Notes: generated by a model not told the origin, from the letters alone. A DNA stretch of 64,000 nucleotides from a bacterium (GCA_963669175.1 OY769902.1:896001-960000), one strand, 5' to 3'. Shown: positions 8 to 57,122, counted from the stretch's first letter. Translations and numbers: made by a program.

Positions 8-664
8 ATGTTTACCGGACTGGTGGAAGAAGTCGGCACAATTCGCATGATGCGCCGCCGTGGGGACGGAGCTATCCTCACCATAGAAGCTCGCAGGGTG
101 CTGGAAGATGTACAAAAGGGCGACAGCATCGCTATTGCCGGGGTTTGTCAGACTGTCGTGCATTTCCAGCCGGGCTGGTTCCAGGTGGAAGCGGTGAAGG
201 AGACGCTTGAACGGACACGTTTTGCCGAGTGGAGCCGTGGGCAGAAGGTCAACCTGGAACGCGCCATGCGTCCCATCGACCGGCTGGGCGGACACCTGGT
301 GCAGGGGCATGTAGACGGTATGGCGGAGGTAGCGGGCATCAAACGCCTGGAGAGTTCTCACCGCCTGACCCTCCGTCCGCTTAATGGTGACATGACCTAT
401 ATCGTGGAAAAAGGTTCGATCTGCCTGGATGGGATCAGCCTTACGGTAGCGTCACTGACTGACAGCACATTTGATGTGGAAATTATTCCGCATACCTGGG
501 AAGCTACCACGCTGCACCTGCTGAAGGGTGGCGACAAGATTCACCTGGAGTGGGATGTCATCGCCAAATATGTGTACAAGATGCTACATGCTTTCAAAAG
601 TGGAACAGACAAGAAAGAATCCGGCGGCCTGACTGCGGAAAAGTTGATGGAATATGGATTCTAA
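8..664 (+). CDS. ribE: riboflavin synthase (alpha chain)
   Basis: N-terminal MFTG signature, GDSIAI..VC.TV, VNLERA and GGHLVQGHVD motifs; rib operon context. A TAATG overlap at 6-10 suggests coupling to an upstream gene outside the window. Confidence 0.96.
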   Translation: MFTGLVEEVGTIRMMRRRGDGAILTIEARRVLEDVQKGDSIAIAGVCQTVVHFQPGWFQVEAVKETLERTRFAEWSRGQKVNLERAMRPIDRLGGHLVQGHVDGMAEVAGIKRLESSHRLTLRPLNGDMTYIVEKGSICLDGISLTVASLTDSTFDVEIIPHTWEATTLHLLKGGDKIHLEWDVIAKYVYKMLHAFKSGTDKKESGGLTAEKLMEYGF

Positions 665-693
665 GTAAAGAAGGTAAAAAAAGTAAAGAAGGT
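662..693 (+). repeat. 9-mer periodic purine-rich array, left arm of cassette 1
   Basis: taagt aaagaaggt aaaaaaagt aaagaaggt, beginning in the ribE stop codon; complementary to 1149-1194. Confidence 0.8.
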
Positions 694-732
694 GATAGAG
701 TGTGACAGAATATTTTAAAGAGGGGTAATAGC

Positions 733-1098
733 ATGACTACGAAATACAAGAGCTTTGAAGAGTTGGAAATATGGCAAAAGTGATGCAGGTTGGCAGCGGA
801 TATTTACAGGGAAACCAAAGAAGGTTCCTGGAAAAATGATTATTCATTACGTGACCAAATCAGGAGAAGCGCAGTATCAATTCCATCCAATATTGCAGAA
901 GGGTATGAACGAAACAGCAGAAAAGAGTTTATCCGTTTCTTGAAAATAGCAAAAGCATCATGTGGAGAATTTCGAACACAATTATATATAGCAAAAGCGA
1001 TAGGATATATGAATAAGGAGACTTTTGATAAGTTTCACGAATCATCAAGAAAAGTCAGCGCAATGATCCAATCTTTAATAAATAGTATCAGAGATTGA
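733..1098 (+). pseudogene. four helix bundle protein (23S rRNA IVS-protein family) with in-frame TGA at 781-783
   Basis: RBS (agagggg) and ATG at 733 give MTTKYKSFEELEIWQK*CRLAADIY...LRDQIRRSAVSIPSNIAEGYER...AKASCGEFRTQL; collinear with the intact paralog at 3082. Confidence 0.8.
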
Positions 1099-1148
1099 AG
1101 ACTTGGATATTCAAGATGTTACGAACAACATTCAGAAGCATTAAGAGG

Positions 1149-1194
1149 TTTTTACTTTCTTTACCTTTTTTACGTTTTTTACTTTTTTCACTTA
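1149..1194 (-). repeat. 9-mer periodic array, right arm of cassette 1
   Basis: Reverse complement reads taagt gaaaaaagt aaaaaacgt aaaaaaggt aaagaaagt; ends a few nt before the ribBA RBS (aaggag). Confidence 0.8.
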
Positions 1195-1213
1195 TCCATA
1201 AGGAGAAACAGTC

Positions 1214-2416
1214 GTGATTTTTCATCCCATCGAAGAAGCGATAGAGGAGATCCGTGCAGGACGCATGATTATCCTGTGCGATGATGAAGACCGGGAGAAC
1301 GAAGGTGATCTGGTAATGGCGGCCTCGAAGGTGACCCCGGAAGCGGTCAACTTCATGGCGAAAAACGGGCGTGGCATGATCTGTATGTCCCTGAGCGAGG
1401 AAAAGGCTCATCAGCTCGACCTGGCGCCCATGGTGGATACCACGCATAATACCGCGTTGCACGGCACCAAGTTCACCATCACTATTGACGCTGCCGAAGG
1501 CACCACTACCGGTATTTCCGCCGCGGATCGTGCGATAACGATGCAGAAGGCTGCAGAAGCGGATGCCAAGCCGGAAGATTTCGGACGTCCGGGCCATGTT
1601 CACCCGATCATCGCTGCGCAAGGAGGAGTGTTGCGTCGGGCCGGGCACACCGAAGGCACAGTCGATCTGGCGCGTTTGGCCGGATGCCCACCATTGGGTG
1701 TTCTGTGTGAAGTGATGAACGAAGACGGTACTATGGCGCGTGTTCCCGACCTGCACAAGCGAGCGCAGGAATGGGGCCTGAAGATGTTCACTATCCGTGA
1801 TCTGATCGAGTATCGTCAGCGTACGGAAAAACTGATTGAACGTACCGTGACCGTCCCCCTGCCGACCTGGCATGGTGATTTTATGATGCACCATTACCAC
1901 GAGGTAGCTTCGGGCAAGGAACATGTTGCGTTGACATTGGGCGAGTGGGAAGAGGATGAGCCGGTGCTGGTGCGTGTGCATAGTGAATGCCTGACCGGGG
2001 ACACATTGCATTCCAAGCGCTGCGATTGTGGGCAGCAACGGGATCGCGCCCTGGAAATGATACAGGAAGAAGGCAAGGGTGTATTCCTGTACATGCGTCA
2101 GGAAGGACGTGGTATCGGCCTTGAAGCGAAGCTGAAAGCGTATGCCTTGCAGGACAAGGGACATGATACCGTGGAAGCCAACCTCTTGCTGGGATTCAAG
2201 CCAGATCTGCGTGACTACGGAATTGGCGCCCAGATCCTGCGTGATCTCGGGGTGCGCAAGATGAAGCTGATGACCAACAACCCGAAGAAAATCGTCGGCT
2301 TAAAGGGATACGGGCTGGAAGTAGTGGATCGTGCGCCGATCGAGATCGAGGCCAACGAGTACAATACCTACTACATGCAGACGAAAAAAGAAAAAATGGG
2401 GCATTTGTTGCACTAG
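1214..2416 (+). CDS. ribBA: bifunctional DHBP synthase / GTP cyclohydrolase II
   Basis: [38 protein letters not shown] and RQEGRGIGL motifs. Confidence 0.97.
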
Positions 2417-2454
2417 AAGTGAAAAAAGTGAAAAAAGTGGGCAGTGAAAAAAGA
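2417..2454 (+). repeat. GTGAAAAAA 9-mer array, left arm of cassette 2
   Basis: aagtgaaaaaagtgaaaaaagtgggcagtgaaaaaag directly after the ribBA stop; inverted copies at 3030-3066 and 3459-3494. Confidence 0.85.
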
Positions 2455-2489
2455 GCTTGAGTGGAAGCACTCTCAACTCTGACAGACTA

Positions 2490-2753
2490 GTGGACCATTG
2501 CACCTGATATGAGTTGTTCTGCTTGTTTTTGATGAGTCGATTTCAAGGCAGTTTCACGAAATCATAGTGGTTCTATTCTGAGTAAAACTAACGCAGAAAT
2601 CGGCCATCAAAAACAAGCCCTAAGGGAGCGCGCGCTTTGCCCCATGACTGCGTTGCTTTCCCTTGAAATAGCCCGCTATGTCTGTAGTCAAGCACCTTGT
2701 CCTGAGGTAAAGTGCGCAGCTCAGAAAACATCATAGCAGGTGCAATGGTCCAC
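2490..2753. mobile_element. MITE-like element (~264 bp)
   Basis: Perfect 17-bp terminal inverted repeat GTGGACCATTGCACCTG / CAGGTGCAATGGTCCAC, extending imperfectly to ~30 bp; no convincing ORF. Confidence 0.7.
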
Positions 2754-2962
2754 AAGCACGAAAACGGGAAACATGATAAAAGAAAACCAATAGAGAGTTA
2801 ATGAAAACCAAGAATTATAAAGTGTTGGACATTTTGAGGTGAATATAAGCATTAGTGGTTGATTTTTGTGGCGTTGCTGGTAAGCCGGATTGGGTCAAAG
2901 GTTTTGTCTGGCGTGATTACCTGCATAAAAGCGCAGTATCCATTCATTCGATTTTGGAAGCA

Positions 2963-3018
2963 TAGAGTTTTCTGCCATGATTCAGTCGCTAATAATACAT
3001 TTATCGAGAGAGAATTAG
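2963..3018 (+). pseudogene. 3' remnant of another four helix bundle gene
   Basis: Reads EFSAMIQSLIIHLSREN* versus EISAMIQSLITHLSKES* at the end of 3082-3447, followed by the same right-arm repeat. Confidence 0.7.
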
Positions 3019-3029
3019 TAAAGCAGTTT

Positions 3030-3066
3030 CTTTTTTCACTTTTTTCACTGTCAACTTTTTTCACTT
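3030..3066 (-). repeat. TTTTTTCAC array, right arm
   Basis: Inverted relative to 2417-2454; directly before the RBS (aggag) of the gene at 3082. Confidence 0.85.
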
Positions 3067-3081
3067 TAGCAGGAGAACCGT

Positions 3082-3447
3082 ATGGCTACCAAGAAATTTG
3101 AAGAGTTGGATATCTGGAAGCGGGGATGCAGGTTGGCTGTTGATCTTTACGGCCTGACAGGAAAAGGGAATTGGGCAAAAGATTTTTCACTTCGAGACCA
3201 GGTCAGACGATGCGCAGTGTCTGTTCCGTCCAATGTTGCGGAAGGATTTGAACGTGGTGGAGTGAACGAATTCCGTCGTTTTCTCCGTATCGCCAAGGGA
3301 TCATGTGGCGAACTTCGTACCCAACTGTATATAGCACAGGCAATCGACTATATTTCCAAACCTGATATGGATCCTATTGTTCAGGAAACACGTGAAATCA
3401 GCGCCATGATTCAATCGCTAATAACCCATTTATCGAAAGAGAGTTAG
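3082..3447 (+). CDS. four helix bundle protein (23S rRNA IVS-protein family)
   Basis: FEELDIW, LRDQVRRCAVSVPSNVAEGFER and AKGSCGELRTQL motifs; 121 aa; good RBS. Confidence 0.92.
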   Translation: MATKKFEELDIWKRGCRLAVDLYGLTGKGNWAKDFSLRDQVRRCAVSVPSNVAEGFERGGVNEFRRFLRIAKGSCGELRTQLYIAQAIDYISKPDMDPIVQETREISAMIQSLITHLSKES

Positions 3448-3458
3448 CAATACGGTTT

Positions 3459-3494
3459 CCTTTTTCACTTTTTTCACTGTCTACTTTTTTCACT
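3459..3494 (-). repeat. TTTTTTCAC array, second right arm
   Basis: Near copy of 3030-3066; directly before the ribH RBS. Confidence 0.85.
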
Positions 3495-3510
3495 CCAACA
3501 AGGGGTTATT

Positions 3511-3981
3511 GTGAAAACTATCGAAGGCATTCTGGACGGCAAGGGCAAGAAGTTTGGCATCGTTGCCAGCAGGTTTAACAGTTTTATCGTGGATCGGTTG
3601 ATTGAAGGCGCAGTGGATGGCTTGAAACGTCATGGCGTGGAAGAGGATGACATTATCCTGGCACGTTGTCCTGGCAGCTTCGAGATTCCTGGCGTGGCGA
3701 AGAAGATGGCCCGGAGCGGCAAAGTGGATGCCGTCATTGGGATTGGCAGCCTGATCCGTGGTGCAACAACCCATTACGATCACGTGGCCGCAGAAGTAAC
3801 AAAAGGCCTTGCGACGCTTTCGTTTGAGGGTGACATTCCGGTAATTTATGGGATTGTTACGGCAGAAAGCATTGAACAGGCCATTGAACGTGCGGGCACA
3901 AAAGCTGGCAACCGTGGCTTTGCTGCGGCCGAGAGCGCATTGGAAATGGTCAATCTTTACGGGAACCTGTCGTCCCTTTAG
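3511..3981 (+). CDS. ribH: 6,7-dimethyl-8-ribityllumazine synthase
   Basis: [23 protein letters not shown] and [12 protein letters not shown] motifs. Confidence 0.97.
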
Positions 3982-4075: not shown

Positions 4076-6445
4076 ATGCGCGGCCGCACTATGACTCTGC
4101 CTCTGGGAGTCCTGGTATTAGCCTTATTTGCCGATGTGGCGTTTGGGGATACCTGGCGAACAATCACTGCCGGGTGGAAACCCAACCGAGTTGCCATTGC
4201 CGGTGGAAAAATCTGGGCGTGTTCGGAAGGTGGATTGTACGATGTCGCAGCGGATTTCTCCGACATTCGTCTCCTGAACAAGGATGACGGGCTCTATGCG
4301 AATGATGTCAATGTGGTGCGCGCGGAAGCGGACGAGTCCCGCATATGGATCGGGTATGATGATGCCGGAGTTGATCGTATTGATCCGGCCACAGGTGACA
4401 TTGTTCAACGTATCCTTGATTTTGTCGAATCGAACGAAGTCTTCTCCATCTATGATATTTTCCTGTCCGAAACAGAAGCTTACGTTGCAACAGATATCGG
4501 TGTAAGCAAGCTTATTCCTTCCGATTATGACGATCTCTGGGTCGTAAGCGAAACCTACCGAAACTTCGGAGTCGGGACAGATGCCTGGCCTCAGCCGGTC
4601 AAGGTGGAGTCTGTGTTTTCGGACGGGGAATGGTTGTTTGTCGGTGGTATAAACGGTATCGCGGTCGCGTCGCTGGAAGACAATCTGTTTGATCCCGGGG
4701 TATGGCAGACATTTGACTTTGAGAGTGACCTTCCCCATCGTAGTGATGTGACAAACAATGTGAGCTGGTTTCGTCAGATGAACGGCGAAATCTATGCTGG
4801 ATTGTACCTGTTTACTGTCGTGCGCTGGGATGGAGAAGAGTGGGATCAGGCCACTCCGAACTACAGATTCTATTTCGGTATGACGGACTCGCCTGACAGC
4901 ACGATTTACTGTGGCGCCGGCAACGGTTTATATAAATGGAATCGTGATGACAACACCTTTGACCTGCTGATCCCCGACAGCCTGACCCAAAAAGTCTTTG
5001 ATCTGACCTGGGCTTTTGGCAATGTTGTGGGAGTTCTTGATACGGACGCCAAAGATAAGGGTGGTGTATTCAGGTTTGATCCTGATACAGGCGAGTATAT
5101 CGTAATTCACCCCAACACTCCTGGTGGGAACCAGGCTACCCAATTGCACATCGATGAAAGCGGTACGGTTTGGATTACAGCGCGCTCTTCCAATCAGAAC
5201 GGTATCTATGGGTTGACGGCGGAAGGGGTATGGGAATCGATCACACGTTTGGATCTGACTCAGGATGCGTTCAACTATACGTTCCTTGATATCGGGACAG
5301 ACGATGCCGGTGGGGTCTGGATCGGCAGCCGTGGCGATGGTCTTGTTCACATCATGCCCACTGACACCGGTCTTGTTCCAACCTGGTTTAATGCGGACAC
5401 CAGTACGGGGGCACGTTTGCAACCAATGTCCAATGATGGTTTTGTTCTGATCGGTGGTGTAGCACGTGAGCCGGGAAAAGGAATGTGGTTGGTAAACACC
5501 TATGCTGGCGATGAATTATCCGGTGTGCTTCGCAAGCCATTGATCTTTGTTCCTCTCGCCTGGTATACCGACCCGACCACAGAATGGCAGACATACAGCA
5601 CGGTTGATGGTGTACCAACGATTGATATCAAGAGTGTAATACGTGACCATTATGGACGTTTGTGGTTTGGTCCTCTTTCGGACGCTGACCAGTATTCCAT
5701 GGTGATGATGAACCCGGCCGGAACACCCATGAATCCGGATGATGATTCCTACATGACATTTGGCACCGGGGATGTCGGATTCACCATGGTCAACGATATG
5801 GTGCTGGATGATGAAGGGTTCCTGTGGGTTGGTGCGCCGGATGGATTGTACTACATCGACACGAACCATGACGATAGTTTTATCGTTGGATCTGTCACTG
5901 GTGCGCTGGGAGAGGAAATCACTGCTGTAGCCCTGGACCCGATGGGGCACATCTGGTGCGGTACCCACAACGGCGTGTCGGTATTTAATCCGGCACGGAT
6001 GAGCTGGGTGAATCACTATACGGTTGCCAGTGGCCGCTATCCGAGTCGATTGGTTGACGATGATATCACCTGCATGGAATTCAACGGAGAAACCGGGGAA
6101 GCCTGGATCGGGACCAACATCGGCGTTTCCGTGTTGACGACACCATACCGGAATTTCGGAGATGAACTGGGTGAGATTGATGTGCGTCCCCAACCTTTCC
6201 TGCTAGGTAATGATGGCGTATCCCTCCAGTTTATGGGGGAAAGCCTGGTCAACGGTGCAACGATAAAGATTTTCACTCCTTCAGGCAGACTGGTGCGTGA
6301 ACTTAGCTTCAGCGAAGCCTCTTCAGAGGGGTGGGATGGACGCAACAAGGAAGGTGAACTGGTTTCCAGCGGAGTCTACCTGTTGCTGGTGACAGACCCG
6401 GAAGGACATTCCAAAGTTGGGAAAGCGGCTGTTGTGCGTAAATAA
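4076..6445 (+). CDS. secreted beta-propeller protein with C-terminal FlgD/Ig-like domain (PorZ-like architecture)
   Basis: Signal peptide; repeated D..G.[VL]W[IV]G blades; C-terminal IKIFTPSGRLV...WDGRNKEGELVSSGVY...GKAAVVR. Confidence 0.65.
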   Translation: MRGRTMTLPLGVLVLALFADVAFGDTWRTITAGWKPNRVAIAGGKIWACSEGGLYDVAADFSDIRLLNKDDGLYANDVNVVRAEADESRIWIGYDDAGVDRIDPATGDIVQRILDFVESNEVFSIYDIFLSETEAYVATDIGVSKLIPSDYDDLWVVSETYRNFGVGTDAWPQPVKVESVFSDGEWLFVGGINGIAVASLEDNLFDPGVWQTFDFESDLPHRSDVTNNVSWFRQMNGEIYAGLYLFTVVRWDGEEWDQATPNYRFYFGMTDSPDSTIYCGAGNGLYKWNRDDNTFDLLIPDSLTQKVFDLTWAFGNVVGVLDTDAKDKGGVFRFDPDTGEYIVIHPNTPGGNQATQLHIDESGTVWITARSSNQNGIYGLTAEGVWESITRLDLTQDAFNYTFLDIGTDDAGGVWIGSRGDGLVHIMPTDTGLVPTWFNADTSTGARLQPMSNDGFVLIGGVAREPGKGMWLVNTYAGDELSGVLRKPLIFVPLAWYTDPTTEWQTYSTVDGVPTIDIKSVIRDHYGRLWFGPLSDADQYSMVMMNPAGTPMNPDDDSYMTFGTGDVGFTMVNDMVLDDEGFLWVGAPDGLYYIDTNHDDSFIVGSVTGALGEEITAVALDPMGHIWCGTHNGVSVFNPARMSWVNHYTVASGRYPSRLVDDDITCMEFNGETGEAWIGTNIGVSVLTTPYRNFGDELGEIDVRPQPFLLGNDGVSLQFMGESLVNGATIKIFTPSGRLVRELSFSEASSEGWDGRNKEGELVSSGVYLLLVTDPEGHSKVGKAAVVRK

Positions 6446-19846: not shown

Positions 19847-20814
19847 ACCTACCCGACTCCATGTGGGCGGTGCGGGTTGATAGCGGCATGAAAGCCGTGA
19901 GGACCGCTCTGCCTCCACGTCACCCTGGTGACTGCCTGGTCAAAATCCAACGTATCGGCATTTGTGGAACCGACCTGAAAATGTTTGAAGGATATACCGA
20001 TTTTCAGGGCATTGTAGGGCACGAATTCGCAGGTACCGTGATCGAAGCGGATGATCCTTCCTGGATCGGCAAACGTGTTACATCTTCCATCAATCTCCCC
20101 CCTGCTGACGCCGATTCTTCCTTTGATTGGGCGTCGGTGAAACATCATCCCCGTCGCCGAGCCTTGGGAATCCGTAACTATGACGGTGTGATGGCGGAAT
20201 ATGCTTCTCTGCCGCCGGAAATACTGGTTGAACTCCCGGATTCGGTAGATGATCTGGCCGGGGCAATGGCGGAGCCGTTGGCTTCTGCGCTTGAAGCGGT
20301 GGAGGTTCTGCCGAAGAAATACAATCCTGTGCTGGTGGTTGGCGACGGACGTGTGGCGCAACTGGTGATTCGTGTGCTGGACGCCGCCGGGCTGGAAGTA
20401 CACCTGATGGGGAAACACGCAGACAAAATCAAGCTGGCGCAACAATCCGGCGCGTTCCTGCGTGATAAGGCAACCATTACCCCGGAAACACGTTACCCGG
20501 CCGTCATCGAAGCGACCGGGTCCGCTTCTGGCGTACAGGATGCCCTTACCGCGACTGCACCGGAAGGAGTGCTGGTGCTGAATACGACTCTGCCGCATGG
20601 GGTTGAGCTTGACCTGGCGCGTATCGTAGTCGATGAAATCAAGCTGATCGGATCGCGTTGCGGGGATATATGTAAAGCGGTGGCACTGCTGGAACACGGC
20701 AAAATCAACGTGGACGACATGGTCTCGGCTACGTATCCCTTGCAGGAAGCGGAAACCGCTTTTCGGAAAGCGCAGGAAAAAAGTTCGCTGAAAATACAAC
20801 TTGTTGTTAATTAG
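19843..20814 (+). CDS. zinc-dependent alcohol dehydrogenase (MDR family)
   Basis: GICGTD, GHEF.G, AEPLAS, VVGDG.VA, EATG and GSRCG motifs. Confidence 0.9.
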   Translation: MNLPDSMWAVRVDSGMKAVRTALPPRHPGDCLVKIQRIGICGTDLKMFEGYTDFQGIVGHEFAGTVIEADDPSWIGKRVTSSINLPPADADSSFDWASVKHHPRRRALGIRNYDGVMAEYASLPPEILVELPDSVDDLAGAMAEPLASALEAVEVLPKKYNPVLVVGDGRVAQLVIRVLDAAGLEVHLMGKHADKIKLAQQSGAFLRDKATITPETRYPAVIEATGSASGVQDALTATAPEGVLVLNTTLPHGVELDLARIVVDEIKLIGSRCGDICKAVALLEHGKINVDDMVSATYPLQEAETAFRKAQEKSSLKIQLVVN

Positions 20815-21064
20815 GAATTAGAAATGAGGATTTAGGAATTGACAACGGGTGGCCCGAATCGCAACTGATCCTGCCTGCTTTACATCGCTTTCAGAATATT
20901 CTATTCGGCGCTGACAGTGAAATAATGCTTGGAGCGCTTCGGGGATTATCCTGGTTCGAATTTTCGATGATTCTTGCTGTGAGTGTTTAGGCATGCCTCG
21001 ATGTATCAATTCTGCCGGGTCACGCATGAGTGGGCTACAGACTAACTTTCCCGATTCAGAACCC

Positions 21065-21101
21065 TCCTTTTTCACTTTTTTCACTGCTTGCTTTTTTCAC
21101 T
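21065..21101 (-). repeat. GTGAAAAAA array supplying the stop codon of the minus-strand gene
   Basis: Minus strand reads GAG TGA aaaaagcaagcagtgaaaaaagtgaaaaagg. Confidence 0.8.
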
Positions 21102-47608: not shown

Positions 47609-48254
47609 TATGACTCACAGGATAATAGGATAGAAGGATATCAAGGATAACTGCTGGTTGAATTTACAGGATGAAAAGGATGAAAAACTGAAGATTTATG
47701 TAAAACTGGGACTGACCCATGGTGGTCTGTCCCGTTGTTTTTACTTGAATCTCTATCCTTCAGTCATCCTATCATCCTTCTATCCTGTTAGAATCTTTTC
47801 TTTGCGCCTTTGTGTCCTTGCGTGAAACATTTTTAAGAAACATAAATCCCCGCCAGACCTGATCTCCAGCGGGGTTCTTTTTTGTATGACTCACAGGATA
47901 ATAGGATAGAAGGATATCAAGGATAACTGCTGGTTGAATTTACAGGATGAAAAGGATAGTAAGGATGTCAAGGATAGAAACATAAATACAAATTATTTTT
48001 GTTTTTACCTTGTAGTTTTTCTTTTCTTTGCGCCTTTGCGTCTTTGCGTGAAACATAAAACCCCGCCGGATCTGATCTCCCGCGGGGTTCTTTTTCACAT
48101 GACTCACAGGATGATAGGATGTAAAGATAGCAAGGATAAAAAGGAAAAGATCTGAAAATTTTTTGTTAAAACAGGATTTACCTGCGAAATTCATCCTGTT
48201 CTTTACACTATTCTTTCATCCTTCAGTTATCCTATCATCCTACTATCCTGTTAG
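47609..48254. repeat. mosaic of AGGAT 9-mer arrays, duplicated ~73-bp block and hairpins between convergent genes
   Basis: 47609-47681 repeated at 47885-47957, partial third copy at 48098; inverted ATCCT arrays at 47755-47791 and 48217-48254. Confidence 0.85.
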
Positions 48255-54660: not shown

Positions 54661-54756
54661 AAGTGAAAAAAGCAGGCAGTGAAAAAAGTGAAAAAGGTAG
54701 CCCGGCCATGCCTGGCCGGGAGTTTGAAAGTTGACAAGTTAGAAAGTTCTAAAGTT
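54661..54756 (+). repeat. GTGAAAAAA array, GTAG-REP and AAAGTT 8-mer array
   Basis: First part matches 15722-15774; the gtttgaaagttgacaag block recurs at 57070. Confidence 0.8.
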
Positions 54757-57053: not shown

Positions 57054-57122
57054 TCATTCACTTTTGTAAGTTTGAAAGTTGACAAGGTAGAAAGTTTAAA
57101 AGTTATCTTATCAAATTATCAC

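Follow-up and report, generated by a model that had tools for sequence, protein, structure and literature searches.

Four-helix-bundle genes between riboflavin cistrons are bracketed by inverted tandem arrays and resemble the intervening sequences of rRNA

Why does a bacterial riboflavin operon carry genes of a four-helix-bundle (4HB) family between its cistrons, and why does each lie between tandem arrays that are complementary to one another? The operon is found in a stretch of 64,000 nucleotides (nt) (GCA_963669175.1 OY769902.1:896001-960000; hereafter the window, with positions counted from its first letter) from a genome of 5.45 Mb, represented by one contig, 95.9% complete and referred to here as G000. 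An original prediction, made from the window alone, held that the arrays pair in the mRNA and loop out the 4HB gene. We describe here an element in which an open reading frame (ORF) of ~120 codons, preceded by a Shine-Dalgarno sequence and coding for a protein of the 4HB family PF05635, lies between a left tandem array and an inverted right array, all in the orientation of the operon. It seems to us reasonably probable that these cassettes are passengers of the intervening-sequence (IVS) type that live in mRNA instead of 23S rRNA.

All genes and arrays of the operon lie on the plus strand. The rib genes, as identified with Pfam and NCBIfam, are ribE (8..664; riboflavin synthase; PF00677, NF006767), ribBA (1214..2416; DHBP synthase / GTP cyclohydrolase II; PF00926 and PF00925, NF006803) and ribH (3511..3981; lumazine synthase; PF00885, TIGR00114). 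Purine-rich 9-mer arrays had been predicted to start at the upstream stop codons, and they do: left arm 1 (662..693; (AAGTAAAGAAGGTAAAAAAAGTAAAGAAGGT); inverted repeats I2 and I3) begins at the ribE stop codon TAA (662-664), which lies inside the base of stem 1 in the predicted fold, and left arm 2 (2417..2453; (AGTGAAAAA)n; inverted repeats I4, I5 and I8) begins one base past the ribBA stop codon. Their complements are the pyrimidine-rich right arm 1 (1151..1194) and, for left arm 2, a proximal right arm (3030..3067; (TTTTTCACT)n; inverted repeats I4 and I8) and a distal right arm (3459..3494). All five arrays have a period of 9 according to Tandem Repeats Finder (TRF), and the arm boundaries, which were taken from local alignment of the repeats, may shift by one unit. 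The right arms were also expected to end a few nt ahead of the next ribosome binding site, and spacings of 5, 3 and 5 nt were found, to AAGGAG of ribBA (1200-1205), to AGGAG (3071-3075) and to AAGGGG of ribH (3500-3505), respectively; the middle site, which follows the proximal right arm, serves the intact 4HB gene and not a rib gene.

Both junctions do contain members of the 4HB family, as had been claimed, but not as two intact genes. The first, 4HB gene 1 in the ribE|ribBA junction (733..1098; PF05635/TIGR02436), has its own Shine-Dalgarno sequence (GAGGGG at 720-725) and matches the family with an E value of 6e-39 if an in-frame TGA at 781-783 is read through. This codon is GGA (Gly) in the window paralog, and a ~91%-identical relative in one public sequencing run has G at 781 and hence also GGA. 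The TGA is thus likely a recent nonsense change at the strain level, which would make the gene a recent pseudogene or have it restart at TTG 790; use of TGA as a sense codon was ruled out, since the relative has GGA at this position and ordinary genes in the loci of relatives end with TGA. The ribBA|ribH junction holds two tandem cassettes with left arm 2 in common, a dead one followed by an intact one. The dead cassette contains a decayed 4HB remnant (~2801..3018; tblastn; direct repeats D3 and D5), whose N-terminal part aligns with residues 1-50 of the intact protein at 42% identity (tblastn), whose middle is deleted and whose C-terminal tail shares 88% DNA identity with 3403-3494 (D3). Nested in the same cassette is a 270-nt insert without strand assignment (2487..2756) that has 35-nt terminal inverted repeats (I1) and four further full-length copies in the genome, 93-97% identical, plus many diverged ones; it behaves as a miniature inverted-repeat transposable element (MITE). 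The intact copy, 4HB gene 3 (3082..3447), encodes 121 amino acids (PF05635, E 9.6e-34; NF008912, 139 bits with a cut-off of 124) and matches the solved pentameric protein XCC0516 (PDB 2gsc, 5 chains; E 3.4e-16). Two of the three copies in the operon are therefore broken, by the nonsense change in gene 1 and by the decay of the remnant. The cassettes have a G+C content of 36%, compared with 50% for the genome.

The arms of each cassette are complementary over most of their length. Segments 662-693 and 1163-1194 pair over 32 nt (84%) and 663-693 and 1154-1184 over 31 nt (87%); left arm 2 matches the proximal right arm at 2425-2453/3039-3067 (29 nt, 93%) and 2418-2437/3030-3049 (20 nt, 100%) and the distal right arm at 2427-2453/3468-3494 (27 nt, 93%). 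The stems are thus ~27-32 bp long, shorter than the 30-40 bp first proposed. The minimum-free-energy fold of cassette 1 forms a helix from the last ribE codons and TAAGT (662-666) to ACTTA (1190-1194), the stem base named in the original prediction, and the stability of 655-1215 (-122.6 kcal/mol) withstood the comparison with shuffles proposed there (-103.8 +/- 6.3; z -2.98; 1 of 100 shuffles as good). For ribBA|ribH, the corresponding fold joins left arm 2 to the distal right arm, so that ~1 kb is looped out. Cognate duplexes of the arms alone reach -37.2 to -39.4 kcal/mol, with z values of -3.4 to -4.7 against dinucleotide shuffles (right arm 1, -37.5, z -4.7; proximal right arm, -37.2; distal right arm, -39.4, z -4.2); pairing also occurs between shuffled A-rich and U-rich sequences, which keeps these z values modest. 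Noncognate combinations of window arms are weaker, at -20.4 to -28.5 kcal/mol. Right arm 1 is also 91% complementary over 22 nt (1172-1193) to left arm 2 (2417-2438), an alternative pairing that could loop out ribBA, at -28.5 versus the cognate ~-37 to -39 kcal/mol.

For comparisons between loci, an arm score was taken from local alignment of the 220-nt flanks of a gene and not from duplex z values of whole flanks, which were uninformative, as entire 260-nt flanks paired. With the upstream search flank of the intact gene placed beyond the dead cassette, the window cassettes score 42-44, while 300 random genome positions in the same geometry average 16.8 and reach at most 25. The arms around dead cassette 2 are intact. 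Inspection of the three window boundaries and of the korA|korB cassette described below revealed no target-site duplication, no terminator-like site was found on the plus strand within the cassettes, and a scan for sigma-70 promoters gave results at the shuffle level (5 found versus 4.6 expected). Among reads from four runs, one contig, from run X1, joins 2452 to 3458; it was left unused because of its insufficient length and its probable origin in a different locus with arms. A relative in run X5 shows no read cover at 2452-3021 and 3136-3363, from which we draw no conclusion.

Are the cassettes discrete elements, as had been proposed, or parts of the operon? Of 41 related genomes, 40 have ribBA, and among the 30 loci retrieved from them, the 15 from the taxonomic family of this bacterium were compared. 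The only ones with a 4HB gene in the rib operon are G000 and the same-genus genome G001 (tblastn E 1e-5 or better), which has it at ribBA|ribH and whose contig ends before its ribE|ribBA junction. The G001 protein is 69-71% identical and is flanked by the arms (GTGGAAAAC)4/(GTTTTCCAC)3. In other relatives, the junctions are empty and measure 16-18 nt at ribBA|ribH (L007, L009 and L013) and 37 nt at ribE|ribBA (L010). If the window junctions are cut back from arm to arm, with the first removed base being the one that follows the stop codon and the last being the end of the right arm, spacers of 16 and 19 nt remain, each with a Shine-Dalgarno sequence, and these resemble the spacers in relatives, as the proposal of matching empty sites had anticipated. 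In metagenome contigs, similarity stops exactly at the arm ends.

The genome holds only three PF05635 matches, each with different arms. The third gene lies between korA and korB (G000:C1:5095592-5096090, L003) on the strand of its neighbors, within AATTAAG-type arrays of which the left one overlaps the korA stop codon and the right one ends ahead of AAGGAGG. In six relatives, korA and korB are separated by -2 to 30 nt, and the ancestral state was probably one of overlapping or abutting genes. A 4HB cassette occupies this junction in G000, G001 and G006, two genomes, G003 and G026, have hairpins made of arms without a gene (of 169 and 90 nt, respectively), and eight more genomes have other hairpin or MITE-like inserts (loci L144-L169); korA|korB is an insertion hot spot. 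In G006, three 4HB cassettes lie within ~9 kb of the kor operon. Further 4HB genes occupy ribF|rpsO, fliI|fliJ, secY|adk-type and other junctions. The design is shared by an unrelated cargo, since the only PF13366 gene of the genome (GxxExxY; PD-(D/E)XK fold) lies between nuoH and nuoI on the strand of its neighbors (G000:C1:3093169-3093639; L034 1430-1910), with a 35-nt AGGATA-type stem whose left arm is at the upstream stop codon and whose right arm precedes the Shine-Dalgarno sequence.

A survey of arm geometry among 4HB genes, as suggested at the outset, extended these observations. PF05635 occurs in 10 of 16 family genomes in 33 rows, of which 26 were examined; the others comprise three for which there was no locus, one whose flank was 10 nt long, one match too weak for the cut-off and two pieces of a split gene. 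Inverted arms with a score of at least 32 flank 25 of the 26 genes and the GxxExxY cassette (26/27), the remaining gene, L050, scoring only 18; copies number 3-7 per genome, each with its own unit. Across phyla, one genome per species was scanned with an alignment of 13 sequences from one 4HB subfamily, as an alignment of all three was too diverse to serve as a query; the sample is therefore biased to one subfamily, and its figures rest on the best 80 of >600 hits. The 80 loci come from Desulfobacterota, Nitrospirota, Planctomycetota, Bacteroidota, Acidobacteriota, Verrucomicrobiota, Chloroflexota, Proteobacteria, Firmicutes and others, and none of the 80 is located in 23S rRNA. Arms with a score of at least 30 were found at 47 of 76 scorable loci but at none of 68 distal-flank controls (maximum, 27). 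According to crude ORF calls (stop-to-stop), the dominant ORF is on the same strand on both sides of the gene at 48 of 66 loci. GxxExxY genes in the phylum also have arms (20 of 27 scorable loci, with 29 fetched, versus 0 of 24 controls), made of ~9- to 10-nt units of the CACAGAG type.

What do the arms have in common? Tandem structure, defined as a self-identity of at least 0.70 at a shift of 5-12, is present in 55 of 72 arms, compared with 8 of 500 random segments. Of the tandem arms, 48 have a period of 7, 3 of 8, 2 of 9 and 2 of 10, so heptamers are the rule and the 9-mer units of the window are unusual. Left arms start at a median of 1 nt past the upstream stop codon (interquartile range, -9 to +7; 56 of 68 within 10 nt), and right arms end at a median of 27.5 nt ahead of the next start, as far as crude start calls allow. 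The sense strand of the left arm is richer in G than in C in 60 of 73 cases and richer in C in 6, with 7 ties and a mean skew of +0.47. Some arms are far longer than those of the window, namely, L041 (G005:C133), L046 (G015:C52) and L054; examples include ~25 GTCAGAG units facing CATCTGA units with one mismatch per unit, GAGCTGT units over 68 nt, and a right arm of >150 nt.

The arms are inherited together with the gene. Pairs of proteins that are at least 65% identical have an arm 6-mer in common in 88% of cases (n = 16), compared with 29% at 55-65% identity (n = 149) and 10-13% below 55%. Two 4HB genes from Calditrichota and Smithella, 68% identical, both have AGGCTGT arms, and a third 4HB subfamily within the family of this bacterium has AATTA[AG]G arms at five of six loci, the sixth being L050, which lacks a scoring arm. 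The substitution patterns show purifying selection on the 4HB protein: the ratio of nonsynonymous to synonymous substitution rates (dN/dS) is 0.13 in the sole unsaturated ortholog pair, elsewhere the proportions of changed nonsynonymous and synonymous sites (pN and pS) are 0.20-0.28 and 0.71-0.95, respectively, and the invariant alignment columns are Q, R, S, N, E and E. Between G000 and G001, ribBA has a synonymous divergence (dS) of 1.76, which is near saturation, and the arms are nevertheless 93-96% complementary within each genome while their units differ (AGTGAAAAA versus CGTGGAAAA). This fits pairing that selection, or conversion between arms, has preserved, or a replacement of the cassette. 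Replacement fits here because identity between the two genomes is 91% for ribBA but only 69% for the 4HB protein.

These data lead us to favor an effect of the arms on RNA, because of the arm polarity, the fit of the arms to stop codons and Shine-Dalgarno sequences, the lack of internal terminator-like sites and the behavior of the rRNA version of the element; the published behavior of the latter carries the heaviest weight, and polarity counts since a purely symmetric DNA end would not need it. The cassette would be transcribed as part of the operon, with the left arm emerging first and staying unpaired while the passenger ORF is transcribed and translated from its own Shine-Dalgarno sequence. 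Once the right arm emerges, the arms would anneal in vivo to a stem of 27-32 bp (longer in relatives) that loops out the passenger and brings the upstream stop codon and the downstream Shine-Dalgarno sequence to within ~16-20 nt of each other, as at an empty site. RNase III, for which the genome has one gene, would then probably cut the stem, as in the rRNA versions, freeing the passenger RNA and leaving stem remnants on the operon halves, and the passenger ORF would be translated from the loop. Downstream expression would thereby be rescued, and an insertion that does little harm to an essential operon could persist. More speculatively, tandem arrays may tolerate insertions and deletions, as any register pairs, and may regrow by slippage, and the order of a G-rich arm first and a C-rich arm last may avoid exposing a C-rich, G-poor stretch for Rho loading on the nascent RNA.

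Several observations weigh against this. Mismatches between the arms show no wobble bias on the sense strand (22 G·U versus 23 A·C), no more than 16 of 26 cases have the sense duplex as the more stable one (Wilcoxon p 0.16), and the GxxExxY arms lack the G>C polarity (7 versus 10). Some arms have a periodic mismatch in every unit (L041, L056 and L059), so that the stems are imperfect, and 29 of the 76 scorable genes from across phyla have no strong arms. Arms are also about as frequent where the neighboring genes are not co-directional (9 of 18 loci) as where they are (30 of 48). Related genomes and sequences are not independent, and the counts therefore overstate the support. Finally, the many short arrays and MITEs of the genome and its 10 hits to Y1_Tnp transposases (IS200/IS605 or RAYT-like) make an origin of the arms at the DNA level plausible.

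The rival that survives best builds on such points and holds that the arms act on DNA only, either as ends of a mobile element, which form hairpins of single-stranded DNA for an HUH/Y1 transposase or for the cargo protein, or as homology arms for the exchange of cassettes between sites that carry arrays, with RNA pairing being incidental. The joint inheritance of arms and gene, also across phyla, agrees with this, as do the missing G·U strand signal, the arms at non-co-directional neighbors, the Y1_Tnp hits and MITEs and the exact stop of similarity at arm ends in metagenome contigs; the hairpins without a gene at korA|korB in G003 and G026 could be landing pads or footprints. We nonetheless regard an action on DNA alone as unlikely. 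Target-site duplications were not seen at the window boundaries or at kor, copy numbers are low with a different unit for each copy, and no cassette-type arrays were found within 900 nt of the Y1 transposase genes. A purely symmetric DNA end would not require the polarity relative to the transcript (60 versus 6), and a DNA end has no need of the tight fit to stop codon and Shine-Dalgarno sequence. Moreover, the arms have been kept around a dead gene and over a saturating neutral divergence, and the rRNA homolog is cut within its stem as RNA (PMC4990558).

The arrays might also be putative binding sites, for the 4HB pentamer or for a regulator of the host that tunes the translation or stability of neighboring genes, and form part of a wider network of intergenic repeats. 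Short arrays are indeed far more abundant in the genome than in a third-order Markov copy (516 versus 37 with a TRF score of at least 40; 162 versus 0 with a score of at least 50), and most are solitary, with 41 inverted pairs within 3 kb among 552 merged arrays. A regulator has been proposed for heptamer direct repeats just upstream of start codons (PMC4679880; bioRxiv 10.1101/2022.06.06.494920), and both the conservation of the 4HB protein (its dN/dS and invariant columns) and the correlation of unit type with protein subfamily are compatible with this model. The model, which we consider quite improbable, does not require paired arrays to be inverted complements, which they always are; furthermore, cassettes 1 and 2 retain their arms although the gene is dead, G003 has arms at kor but no gene there, and GxxExxY, an unrelated cargo, has the same design. 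The idea that the 4HB genes truly belong to the riboflavin operon and serve in flavin synthesis has their common strand, their position inside the operon and a Shine-Dalgarno sequence for each in its favor, yet it can practically be dismissed, since their distribution contradicts it (they are missing from these junctions in 14 other family genomes at tblastn E 1e-5 or better, except for ribBA|ribH of G001, and the family recurs at kor, ribF|rpsO, fliI|fliJ and secY|adk-type junctions and in cas and capsule loci, as reported in PMC3936711 and PMC13688083) and two of the three copies here are broken.

Arrays and repeats beyond the cassettes are frequent in this genome. Besides the four gene cassettes, inverted pairs bracket AT-rich segments without an ORF and with ACGCAAAG arms, MITEs and short loops, as well as some ordinary genes where the neighboring junctions carry the same unit family. 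The ACGCAAAG-unit elements have inverted ends of ~40 nt around 150-360 nt of ORF-less DNA with 12-22% G+C and mutually dissimilar interiors (G000:C1:1515816-1516041, 1520977-1521210, 1523524-1523746, 2908035-2908328 and 3842457-3842862). At G000:C1:382227-389739, an operon with ccoS- and ccoI-like genes (named by reading the translations rather than through a family search) has AGGATA-, AATTAAG- and AATTAGG-type arrays at successive junctions, so that inverted arrays, some of them in crossing order, flank ordinary genes of 0.4-2.7 kb. Further arrays in the window, at 20809-20840, 21068-21085, 47668-48049, 54678-54756 and 57063-57104, have units AATTAGG, TTTTTCACT, AGGATGAAA, TCTTTGCG, AGTGAAAAA and TTTGAAAG, and no inverted partner was found near them. 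A ~335-nt MITE (233 blastn hits) and a ~70- to 100-nt MITE (70-86 hits) add to the repeats. The 4HB proteins had no match among the PADLOC defense models. At 4076-6445, the window encodes a protein of 789 amino acids with a PorZ-like N-terminal beta-propeller, Reg_prop repeats and an FlgD-Ig-like C-terminal domain, and this domain composition suggests cargo or a component of type IX secretion.

A bolder proposal goes further, and we put it forward tentatively, as one that may well prove wrong: the 23S rRNA IVS would be a rare niche, the first to be seen, of pan-bacterial hairpin-bracketed cassettes with 4HB or GxxExxY cargo whose main home is between housekeeping cistrons. The arms would make up an mRNA intervening sequence that is cut by RNase III and left unligated, making the insertion harmless, their polarity would prevent Rho loading, and such arms or their footprints would account for many of the solitary intergenic heptamer arrays in this lineage and in cyanobacteria, Beggiatoaceae and Bacteroidota. 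The survey itself, in which none of 80 relatives of the ORF lies in rRNA, moves rRNA intervening sequences with their conserved ORF, an oddity for 30 years, into a much larger setting, and intergenic heptamer repeats of unclear role gain a possible origin. The cassettes also suggest a design rule for an insert of ~0.5 kb in an essential operon (a start at the stop codon, an end ahead of the Shine-Dalgarno sequence, complementary arms and an ORF of its own), and they carry a warning for annotation: 4HB genes inside cas, capsule, rib, kor and nuo operons are probably passengers and not members of the pathway.

How, then, do the cassettes compare with known systems? Phage T7 early mRNA and bacterial operons contain intercistronic RNase III stems that are cut without harm to translation. 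The cassettes would share the intercistronic stem with these sites if their arms are processed; unlike the cassettes, T7-type sites consist of a short, local hairpin, lack a passenger gene and are not known to be mobile. MITEs and REP doublets forming hairpins (REPINs) likewise have two inverted arms around a spacer and intergenic or intercistronic positions, and the genome has Y1 transposase genes. In contrast to these elements, the cassettes have arms that are tandem arrays and differ from copy to copy, a conserved ORF and a low copy number, with no target duplication seen. Tandem heptamers in intergenic regions are also familiar from the STRR repeats of cyanobacteria. Head-to-tail arrays of the TAACTGA type, with 2-40 copies and often ending before a start codon, have been described for Beggiatoaceae, cyanobacteria and Bacteroidetes (PMC4679880). 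The arms resemble them in their intergenic head-to-tail units with a period of 7 in 48 of 55 tandem arms of relatives (9 in the window); however, such reports, in their available parts, treat single direct arrays, with one inverted case and no link to a passenger gene, whereas inverted pairs bracket a gene here.

Other comparisons concern the protein. Avd of diversity-generating retroelements (DGRs) is homologous to the 4HB fold, and solved relatives are pentameric (PMC10053308). Unlike Avd genes, the cassettes have housekeeping neighbors, and they are not parts of a DGR because no match to a reverse transcriptase (PF00078, RVT_1) was found in the whole genome. Eighteen 23S_rRNA_IVP genes have been reported inside cas operons, for example, between cmr3 and cmr2, and were read as CRISPR linked (PMC3936711), and one such gene is found within a capsule locus (PMC13688083). 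The placement of the cas-locus genes between cistrons is that of the genes described here; arms or a passenger nature are not noted in the accessible text of that study.

The closest relatives of the cassettes are the IVSs of 23S rRNA with an S23p ORF in Leptospira and Coxiella, and the kinship is closer than originally claimed. According to PMC4990558, the 428-nt Coxiella IVS lies in helix 45, its inverted repeats form a stem of 28 bp, and RNase III cuts in the stem's middle, as mapped by rapid amplification of cDNA ends (RACE); two to three tandem GACAGAT heptamers precede the S23p start, the first of these repeats is where the 5' cut is made, strains differ in their number of repeats, the ORF is decaying, and the G+C content is 36% versus 42.5% for the host. 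Related ORFs occur in 16S and 23S inserts of bacteria of the candidate phyla radiation (CPR) (PMC11270868). Common to the rRNA form and the rib cassettes are a PF05635 protein, a length of ~430-530 nt, a G+C content below that of the host, a terminal stem of ~28-32 bp, 5' tandem repeats, an ORF sense to the host transcript and frequent decay of copies. The rib cassettes differ in that they sit in a protein-coding operon between stop codon and Shine-Dalgarno sequence, not in 23S helix 9, 25 or 45 (the single 23S gene of the genome, at 2954 nt for 2925 model positions, has no insert), in that their units are 9-mers, and in that RNase III excision without ligation, established for the rRNA form, would here follow by analogy. 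A search of the open full-text literature found no published link of 4HB genes to inverted arrays in operons; subscription journals and database family notes were outside its scope, so a prior description is possible. By this comparison, the cassettes appear to work like an IVS and to be homologous to it, yet they lack its defining location in rRNA, and what may be new is that the 4HB family is usually an intercistronic passenger, that its inverted tandem arrays abut stop codons, that GxxExxY shares the design and that solitary heptamer arrays are possibly related.

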